A stretch of 20,000 bases of DNA from Thelocarpon superellum (Eukaryota): positions 45,211 to 65,210 of the forward strand of contig JAPEUG010000053.1 of NCBI GenBank assembly GCA_026025795.1, given 5' to 3'. Shown here piece by piece: positions 152-836 of the stretch; the first letter of the stretch is position 1, and each line of letters starts with the position of its first letter. Both the position numbers and the translations under genes were made by a program. The notes beneath the pieces were generated by a model that saw only the letters and a list, made by a program, of their open reading frames with translations, was not told the DNA's origin and did not search any database.

Positions 152-836
152 ATGTCTGCTGTGTTCCCTGAGCAGGTAGCTGCACCTAGCCCACCTCCTG
201 TGTTGGATCAGAGCACCTGTTAACACTGCATCAAGTGGATTAGCCACAACCACAGCCATAGGTGCCATAAGCCTAATCTGTATGGGAAGTGTGATAGGTG
301 CCAAACTGCTGGGCACCCCTGTCTCTTAGTACATTGATTGCTCTGCTACATAGCTGTACTGATTTGTTGACCAGATCCTGATGAAGTTTGTGGGATAGGT
401 GAACACCATCTTCTAGCTGCAAGAGCAGTACATGAACTTGCTCCTTCATCCTCCTACTAACACCATTGTAGTGGAATCACAGCTAGAGACCTATAGGTCT
501 AGCCTGCTGCTCCACATCTCAAAGTTCTGTTCTACTGTCAAATTCAATGAGTGTGGATAGTGTGACAGCAGCACTCTTCTTGCTGCAACTGAGCATTTGA
601 ACTTCCTCCTGATGGAGATCCTGAACCAGCTGTGCTACTTGGTAGGTGTCTGTGTTGTCTCTGCTGCTTGCTGGGTGTTGCTCACATTGTGGCAGAATCG
701 ATTCTCTACAGTCTGCCTGTTTGGTCCTGATGAGGACCCTGACCTTCTAGACAAACCACTTGAGGGTGAGGCTGCTCCTCAAGTGTGTGGTTTCACAATT
801 GGCAGAGTCAACCCTAGCACAAACCCCAGTTCCTGA
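152..836 (+). pseudogene. Mutated two-intron gene for a ~194-aa Cys6 (Zn2Cys6-like spacing) protein, antisense to pol; exons 152-328, 375-641, 696-836
   Basis: cacaATG at 152; exon 1 reads ...TC*HCIKWISHNHSHRCHKPNLYGKCDRCQTAGHPCLL (C-x2-C-x11-C-x8-C-x2-C-x6-C). Intron 329-374 is GTACAT...ACTGAT...CCAG and intron 642-695 is GTAGGT...GCTCAC...GCAG. Splicing joins track ORFs 23..223 and 597..836 into one frame; internal stops are TAA/TAG, consistent with C>T. Confidence 0.65.

Follow-up and report, generated by a model that had tools for sequence, protein, structure and literature searches.

A decayed candidate antisense gene behind pol in a repeated chromovirus of Thelocarpon superellum

Introduction

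Does the DNA that follows pol in a fungal chromovirus hold a further gene, read from the strand opposite to gag-pol? The question is raised by positions 152-836 of a 20,000-nucleotide stretch of Thelocarpon superellum DNA (contig JAPEUG010000053.1 of assembly GCA_026025795.1, forward-strand positions 45,211 to 65,210; this whole stretch is called the window below). A reading frame with a start codon lies there on the plus strand, behind the minus-strand pol of a long terminal repeat (LTR) retrotransposon of the Ty3/gypsy chromovirus type. A first-pass annotation of the window described it as a third, element-encoded antisense gene with two canonical introns, a spliced product of 194 aa and a zinc-cluster-like motif of six cysteines, and considered it a candidate for an undescribed system.

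Few LTR retrotransposons carry accessory genes, and these genes are little understood. We give an even chance to the reading that 152-836 is a copy, killed by repeat-induced point mutation (RIP), of an accessory gene that the element carries in antisense and that belongs to a family of no known relatives. The gene in the window's copy is not intact and is dead. Its layout is of a kind already known in another ascomycete lineage, and its product matches no known family.

Results

The segment behind pol belongs to the element

Logan contigs of sequencing run X1, which best covers the window's DNA, were placed on the window at a likeness of at least 80%, and depth is given as summed contig depth, which is not a copy count. 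It was found that positions 1-1268 have a summed depth of 4,990-7,090 in X1, compared to 4,520-8,290 over gag-pol (1269-6340) and 143 in the single-copy flank (8560-8876). The segment behind pol is as repeated as pol itself, roughly 35-55 times the single-copy level, indicating its presence in most copies of the family, and relatives in runs X2 and X4 also cover 1-1268. No stretch at LTR depth was seen within 1-1268 in X1, and no copy of 1-1400 was found elsewhere in the window with a repeat finder, blastn or purine/pyrimidine word matching. Polypurine runs of at least 10 nt are likewise absent from 1-1400, where the plus strand has no pyrimidine run of that length. With depth at the level of pol and no LTR in between, 1-1268 belongs to the element, as the first-pass annotation had supposed. 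The lack of an LTR in this segment, which is seen downstream of the pol stop, also means that at least 1.26 kb separates pol from the 3' LTR, which must lie beyond the left end of the window. The 3' end of the putative gene and the end of pol (stop at 1260-1262) lie about 424 nt apart, close to the 410 bp first reported, and, as reported, on opposite strands.

The putative gene shares the CpG loss of the element, also as first described. Nearly all CpG has been lost from position 1 to about 8200, with observed/expected ratios that stay at 0.00-0.07 in each of the 16 windows of 500 nt over 1-8000, compared to 0.85-1.34 in 23 windows from 8501 on, where G+C is 51-69%. In the CpG-depleted DNA of the element the observed/expected ratio is 1.3-1.8 for TG and 1.0-1.8 for CA.

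The gene in the window is a dead copy

The ATG at 152, in the sequence context described, and the TGA at 834-836 are both present. The 194-aa product is obtained only with exons 152-328, 375-641 and 696-836, and it is not open, because this model contains four in-frame stops (TAA 221, TAG 396, TAG 414 and TAG 558). No two-intron GT-AG model with introns of 35-150 nt is open from 152 to 836, and 847 such models exist once the TAA at 221 is tolerated.

Other copies of the element were compared with the window site by site at 40 of the 1201 variable places. Position 221 is mostly C in these copies, giving the codon CAA (Gln), which accounts for 3548.8 of a summed depth of 4083.6 in X1 and for the whole depth in X2 (48.1) and X4 (4.65); the TAA, a CpA-to-TpA change, is therefore private to the window's copy. 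The only indel among the listed differences of other copies was a 2-base loss at position 128 in one X2 contig. Differences at 178, 596, 740 and 830, all within 152-836 and all synonymous in the proposed frames, were considered as evidence of selection. This argument was dropped, because the one at 178 is, like that at 221, a private CpA-to-TpA hit and comparable sites in pol are non-synonymous. In a loose-end consensus near 6298-6327 the other copies keep CpG where the window has CpA (..TGTGACGACG versus ..TGTGACAACAA), which means that less mutated copies of the family exist.

A coding-type signal coincides with the proposed exons

Testing nucleotide composition against codon phase by chi-square gave p=0.0008 for 218-325, p=0.0049 for 375-833 and p=3.7e-5 for 375-641, and the last exon (138 nt) gave p=0.071. 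Such periodicity was not detected in the flanks (2-151, p=0.86; 837-1260, p=0.13), in the LTR (p=0.18) or in the intron-like stretch 329-374 (p=0.48). As a control, 459-nt segments of pol reached p<0.05 in six of seven cases. The G+C content at codon positions 1, 2 and 3 was 0.50, 0.37 and 0.57 in 375-833, compared to 0.50, 0.34 and 0.57 in pol. Similarly, TG and CA dinucleotides fell into the three phases as 19, 29 and 41 in 375-833 (p=0.017), the same order as in pol (157, 194 and 276), and the flanks were flat in this respect (p=0.63, and p=0.64 for 837-1259).

From the first periodic block to the second the register is offset by one base, and the offset falls exactly on 329-374. Three introns of host genes in the window, located through tblastn with PRP4 homologues and through breaks in Pfam frames, start with GTACGT, GTACGT and GTAGGT, have the branch site CTGAC or CTGAT and are 47-61 nt long. 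The GTACAT donor of 329-374 is what GTACGT becomes when CpG turns into CpA. In the 8.2 kb of decayed DNA a strict intron pattern has 8 matches on the plus strand (shuffles 4.55 +/- 2.39) and none on the minus strand (2.06 +/- 1.54), and positions 100-900 contain three of them, compared to an expectation of 0.36 (P=0.015 from 2000 local shuffles). With one intron, a path from 152 meets two stops at best, a result equalled by only 0.54% of 6615 other starts on the plus strand.

Of the two canonical introns first described, 329-374 thus has host-like signals, and the second, 642-695, does not stand in the same way: it is in frame, free of stops and without a CTRAY branch site, the strict pattern misses it, and it is therefore not required. 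An alternative acceptor at 416 would bypass the TAG codons at 396 and 414. The real exon structure may differ from the two-intron model, given the near-perfect intron motif at 428-471, whose splicing would lead into the frame-0 stops at 494 and 500 and so close the frame further on. Upstream of the ATG, the CT-rich stretch 1-151 is open in the ATG frame from position 2, with a low-complexity translation, and could be the leader of the antisense gene.

Several observations, the four in-frame stops among them, weigh against a gene here. The intron pattern and the segment boundaries were set after the sequence had been viewed, and the P values are therefore optimistic. A codon model trained on pol gave the plus frames about -12, compared to +10 to +51 for true pol blocks; the model ranked the true pol frame first in 8 of 8 held-out blocks and is biased against the T-rich antisense strand. 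In sliding 420-nt windows that straddle the frame change the periodicity is weak (p=0.016-0.6), and the codon-aligned minus-strand frames are about as open, with an open reading frame (ORF) at 26..316 and four stops over 375-833. The gene frame, the splice sites and the three TAG stops were read in one decayed copy. In addition, 417-833 gave no Pfam family at E<=1 and no match in a word search of a protein collection. The same search with the reverse transcriptase (RT) segment, run as a control, gave 4695 matches, the best with 52% identity, and the chromovirus family itself is therefore absent from this collection at 128-410 aa; the empty result for 417-833 accordingly says little or nothing on other copies.

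These observations lead to the foremost alternative, in which the region from pol to the 3' LTR is a non-coding 3' untranslated region, and the ATG, the open frames, the cysteine pattern and the GT..AG signals arise from chance and from the T- and TG-rich composition of RIP-like decay. We regard this explanation as possible, though rather unlikely. It accounts for the number of models that open once TAA is tolerated, for the four stops, for the lack of homologues and families, for the negative codon model and for the Cys6-like pattern, which also appears in shuffled sequence (see below); moreover, the decayed 8.2 kb contains 9 other open stretches of 85-165 codons. It does not account for a periodicity (p=3.7e-5 to 0.005) that falls exactly in the proposed exons and in neither the flanks nor the LTR, for the coincidence of the frame change with a host-type intron motif, or for the local enrichment of such motifs and the openness of the frame. 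The claim of a third, element-encoded gene was partly supported, by the membership of the segment in the element, its periodicity, its host-like intron signals and its openness; the copy in the window is not intact.

The plus strand is favoured over the minus strand

Periodicity does not separate strands that are aligned codon by codon, and the coding signal could in principle belong to the sense (minus) strand, as a third ORF or an extension of pol of which the plus frames are only the mirror image. The ORF at 26..316 (96 aa) is exactly codon-aligned opposite exon 1, the minus frame over 375-833 is the frame of pol and encodes a Gln/Glu/Lys-rich helical sequence, and one 420-nt window in another minus frame scored +14.9 in the pol-trained codon model. 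However, the change of register at 329-374 would demand a frameshift or an intron on that strand, where intron-like motifs number zero, and no indel at 329-374 was seen among the listed differences of other copies. Past 1260 the frame of pol meets 17 stops within about 420 codons. The minus path lacks an ATG close to its upstream end and continues through the non-periodic 26-151. At codon position 2 of the plus reading G is rarer than C (0.16 versus 0.21), as in pol, and the minus reading reverses this. The plus strand is therefore favoured, since a minus-strand gene needs a frameshift right at an intron signal, has no start upstream and runs through DNA without periodicity; a sense-strand origin of the signal is quite improbable.

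The six cysteines are probably in large part products of decayed arginine codons

The spacing C-x2-C-x11-C-x8-C-x2-C-x6-C is present at 218-322 in the ATG frame as first described, with the reservation that the first x2 reads TAA-CAC and so includes the stop at 221-223. Plus-strand frames of the decayed element contain 6.8-7.9% Cys, compared to 2.2-4.0% in host frames, and 12% of 200 dinucleotide shuffles of the 8.2 kb contained one or more relaxed Cys6 patterns. Given this frequency and the high Cys background, the motif alone lies within chance.

The codons of 218-322 point to another origin. Seven of them have TG at codon positions 1-2 (6 Cys, 1 Trp) and seven have CA (6 His, 1 Gln), and TG/CA dinucleotides fall into the three phases as 14, 1 and 8 (p=0.004). 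Six His among 35 codons is itself unusual against the plus-frame background (P=0.0008). The 1:1 split of TGN and CAN codons points to CGN (Arg) codons that decayed by CpG loss on either strand, and the equal numbers of TGY and CAY codons, six each, agree with the caveat of the first-pass annotation that TGY may stem from Arg CGY. The same process is visible in RT, where three of the six columns with a conserved Arg among 60 homologues are now H, C or Q, and where the segment in the window has 8 Arg compared to an average of 15 in the homologues. Probably, 218-322 was originally basic, with some of its Cys and His derived from Arg, and the Cys6 pattern probably arose in large part from CGY codons decaying to TGY and CAY. 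With about 40% of the TG dinucleotides taken as former CpG, a rough estimate leaves only a very small chance that all six Cys are ancestral. The segment may nevertheless hold a true Cys/His metal site.

A true cluster of the Zn2Cys6 kind with an expanded first loop, by which the element would encode a Gal4-like transcription factor, would fit the six Cys as spaced, the Pro after the third Cys, the Leu-rich helical region downstream and a host among the ascomycetes, which are rich in Zn2Cys6 factors; the periodicity in 218-325 also makes the frame meaningful. The identity is nevertheless not supported. The family (PF00172) has the spacing C-x2-C-x6-C-x5-12-C-x2-C-x6-8-C, with 6 residues in the first loop, where the candidate has 11, and hmmscan of 152-334 against Pfam gave no family at E<=1, PF00172 included. 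A phmmer search of 152-334 against 1.84 billion representatives gave two matches, both tandem-repeat proteins with ten weak matches each and neither a Zn2Cys6 protein. The seven TG against seven CA at codon positions 1-2 (TG 1.7-fold and CA 1.4-fold over expectation) and the decay of the conserved RT arginines likewise speak against it, and a genuine Zn2Cys6 cluster is highly improbable.

Searches at the level of structure and of metagenomes were made as well. In the ESM Atlas the recognition of plus 561-833 was 1350 and that of minus 522-746 was 1892, both below the mark of 2300, with no usable named match. AlphaFold2 in single-sequence mode, given 375-833 with its stops written as X, drew helices at a mean pLDDT (predicted local distance difference test score) of 46.5, a model that is untrustworthy. 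A CpG-tolerant IUPAC pattern from 231-267 had no match in viral contigs and none in metagenome contigs.

The element and its decay

Six-frame Pfam scans, with stops read as X, gave matches in one frame only, to RVT_1 (E=4e-26), RT_RNaseH (3.5e-22), Integrase_H2C2 (3.2e-13) and SH3_Tf2-1 (1.9e-16); the remaining five frames had no match. The matches to rve (2.8e-5, 24.8 bits) and Chromo (1.2e-4, 22.4 bits) are below the curated cut-offs, as expected of a decayed copy. RT, RNase H, integrase and a C-terminal chromodomain thus all lie in one pol frame, as in a chromovirus. This frame contains 33 stops in 1129 codons, and the copy of the element is therefore dead. A purine/pyrimidine pattern over the chromodomain (1356-1400) had no match in metagenome contigs and none in viral contigs, and of the 8 stretches matched in a search for related loci with the decayed C terminus of pol none was confirmed. 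The coordinates of all features are collected in Table 1.

Table 1. Features of the element and of the candidate antisense gene in the window.
Feature	Position	Strand	Basis or content
CT-rich stretch upstream of ATG	1..151	plus	read directly; on sense strand of the element, purine-rich end of internal region
Putative exon 1, 59 codons	152..328	plus	ATG context CACAATGTC; one in-frame TAA 221-223
Cys/His-rich segment, 35 codons	218..322	plus	6 TGY, 6 CAY, 1 TGG, 1 CAA, 1 TAA
Intron-like motif 1, 46 nt	329..374	plus	GTACAT ... ACTGAT ... CAG; shifts open frame from 0 to 1
Putative exon 2, Leu-rich	375..641	plus	in-frame TAG 396, 414, 558
Extra intron-like motif inside exon 2, 44 nt	428..471	plus	GTACAT ... 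TACTAAC ... TAG
Proposed intron 2, 54 nt, optional	642..695	plus	GTAGGT ... CAG
Putative last exon, acidic/Pro-rich tail	696..836	plus	ends with TGA 834-836
Spacer between 3' ends of antisense gene and pol	837..1259		no coding signal; element-level depth
Pol stop, first in its frame	1260-1262	minus	frame reading
Decayed gag-pol, Ty3/gypsy chromovirus	1260..6316	minus	Pfam matches in one frame
Chromodomain	1311-1460	minus	Pfam
Integrase core	2073-2348	minus	Pfam
RT	3660-4115	minus	Pfam
5' LTR as first drawn	6317..6791	minus	ends TGTAACA ... TGTCACA; TATA-like box near 6475

The 5' LTR as first drawn has proper TGT..ACA ends, and high copy by depth is found only in 6341-6657, where the summed depth of 23,505 falls to 1,116 at 6658-6974; many contigs terminate near 6573, inside the LTR. 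Either the outer U3 part of the LTR varies between copies, or the common LTR is shorter, about 250-340 bp. No second copy of the LTR was found in the window by repeat finder, blastn or purine/pyrimidine word matching.

The decay of the element looks like RIP-type mutation of repeated DNA. C-to-T transitions with a dinucleotide preference were found in the repeated DNA: at 11 of the 21 listed differences analysed the window shows a CpA-to-TpA change relative to other copies, and 940 of about 974 variable places in X1 are transitions. Together with the CpG loss and the ascomycete host, these CpA-to-TpA changes lead us to read the decay as RIP-like.

The host and the remainder of the window

Genes for a PRP4 kinase, TMA7 and a dienelactone hydrolase flank the element. 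The PRP4 exon shares 79-82% identity with proteins from lichen-forming and related ascomycetes, which makes the host a member of the Pezizomycotina; CpG decay driven by methylation, in a host of the basidiomycete type, was rejected on the same matches. Runs labelled as moss metagenome contain contigs that are 95-99% alike to the window, including its single-copy flank at 8463-8964.

Three further stretches of the window were noted. A second CpG-free repeat adjoins the LTR at 6658-8242, with a summed depth of 830-1,580 compared to 143 for single-copy DNA. Its periodicity is strong and of the coding type over 7259-7717 (p=1e-5); it has two ORFs on the minus strand (7280..7561 and 7691..8107) and no Pfam match, and may be a remnant of another mobile element. 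In run X6 (organism B) numerous unrelated contigs, at depths of up to 435, match a short GC-rich stretch at 9023-9059, which looks like a common low-complexity repeat rather than shared ancestry. Just past the stop of the PRP4 kinase, a long simple repeat at about 10980-11230 gives (Asp-Glu)n in minus-strand translation and runs of His-Pro, Ile-Leu or Ser in the plus frames.

Discussion

The reading that we prefer, an accessory gene that sits between pol and the 3' LTR of a Ty3/gypsy chromovirus of roughly 40 copies, on the strand opposite to gag-pol, suggests how intact copies might work. The antisense transcript would start near or in the 3' LTR, cross the CT-rich leader and lose at least one short intron, either 329-374 or 329-416. 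Such an intron would not be lost at retrotransposition, since the genomic RNA has the sequence of the opposite strand. The predicted product of about 190-212 aa would begin with a basic segment rich in Arg or in Cys/His, continue with a helical, Leu-rich middle and end in an acidic/Pro-rich tail, and a nucleic-acid-binding or regulatory role for the element may be guessed at from the layout alone. A stronger claim would be that CpG-intact copies possess a functional, spliced antisense gene of an undescribed family, which is expressed from the 3' LTR and regulates the transcription, RNA handling or silencing of the element through a new Cys/His metal-binding module or an Arg-rich nucleic-acid-binding N terminus; we consider this unlikely. 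The value of the locus is as a pointer to the intact copies of the family rather than as a dead gene. It also illustrates that RIP-type decay can create Cys-rich patterns resembling zinc fingers from Arg codons.

Compared with the Gal4-type Zn2Cys6 proteins (PF00172), the candidate has six Cys near its N terminus, a second half (C-x8-C-x2-C-x6-C) that is within the range of the family and a helical region that follows. It differs from them in a first loop of x11 instead of x6, in having neither a Pfam match nor relatives, in a stop as one of the x residues, and in an abundance of Cys and His such as decayed Arg would leave.

HBZ and APH-2 are nuclear regulatory proteins with a basic region and a helical or zipper part. 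They are encoded by antisense genes of the complex retroviruses HTLV-1 and HTLV-2, respectively, which are transcribed from the side of the 3' LTR against the genomic strand (PMC11963269). Their likeness to the candidate is an analogy of layout only, with no sequence relation and a different host kingdom, and with the candidate known from DNA alone; if intact copies hold a working gene, it would be a fungal counterpart of these retroviral antisense regulators.

The claim of an undescribed system did not survive comparison with the literature. Grande of maize, RIRE2 of rice, Retand of Silene and the fungal element Boty each have a described antisense ORF that lies between pol and the 3' LTR (PMC7264820, PMC11963269). 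The candidate resembles the plant ORFs in its presence in most copies of the family and, on our reading, would resemble them in being antisense and in lying between pol and the 3' LTR, and a DNA-binding or regulatory role is suspected for them (PMC11963269, PMC7264820). In contrast, the plant ORFs belong to lineages other than chromoviruses, with 2.9-6.6 kb between pol and the LTR and, in most, a TRP28 domain (PF04195), whereas the present case has no Pfam match and involves a fungal host and a chromovirus.

The closest known system is brtn of Boty, whose original description is reportedly that of Zhao et al. in 2011 (Virology 417:248), on Boty-like elements of Botrytis cinerea and Sclerotinia. 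Boty occurs in Botrytis and Sclerotinia (PMC7264820), and Boty-like elements combine a gag-pol that has a CHROMO domain with brtn (PMC4227169). A later paper locates brtn on BcGypsy1, mentions further extra ORFs on other Botrytis elements and states that brtn is missing from the current B05.10 annotation (PMC8365987). Boty shares with the present element an ascomycete host, a gag-pol with a chromodomain and, on our reading, an extra gene on the opposite strand between pol and the 3' LTR that is found across the family. The candidate differs from brtn in being seen in a RIP-decayed copy only and in having beside it a pol that is at most 52% identical to any pol fragment of the protein collection searched, and the two are likened by layout and not by sequence. 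In the parts of the fungal literature covered here, brtn of Boty is essentially the one case that is named. If our reading is true, a second, unrelated-looking and intron-bearing antisense gene in another ascomycete lineage would suggest repeated origin or capture of such genes, and would offer, next to brtn, a second system for asking what these accessory genes do.

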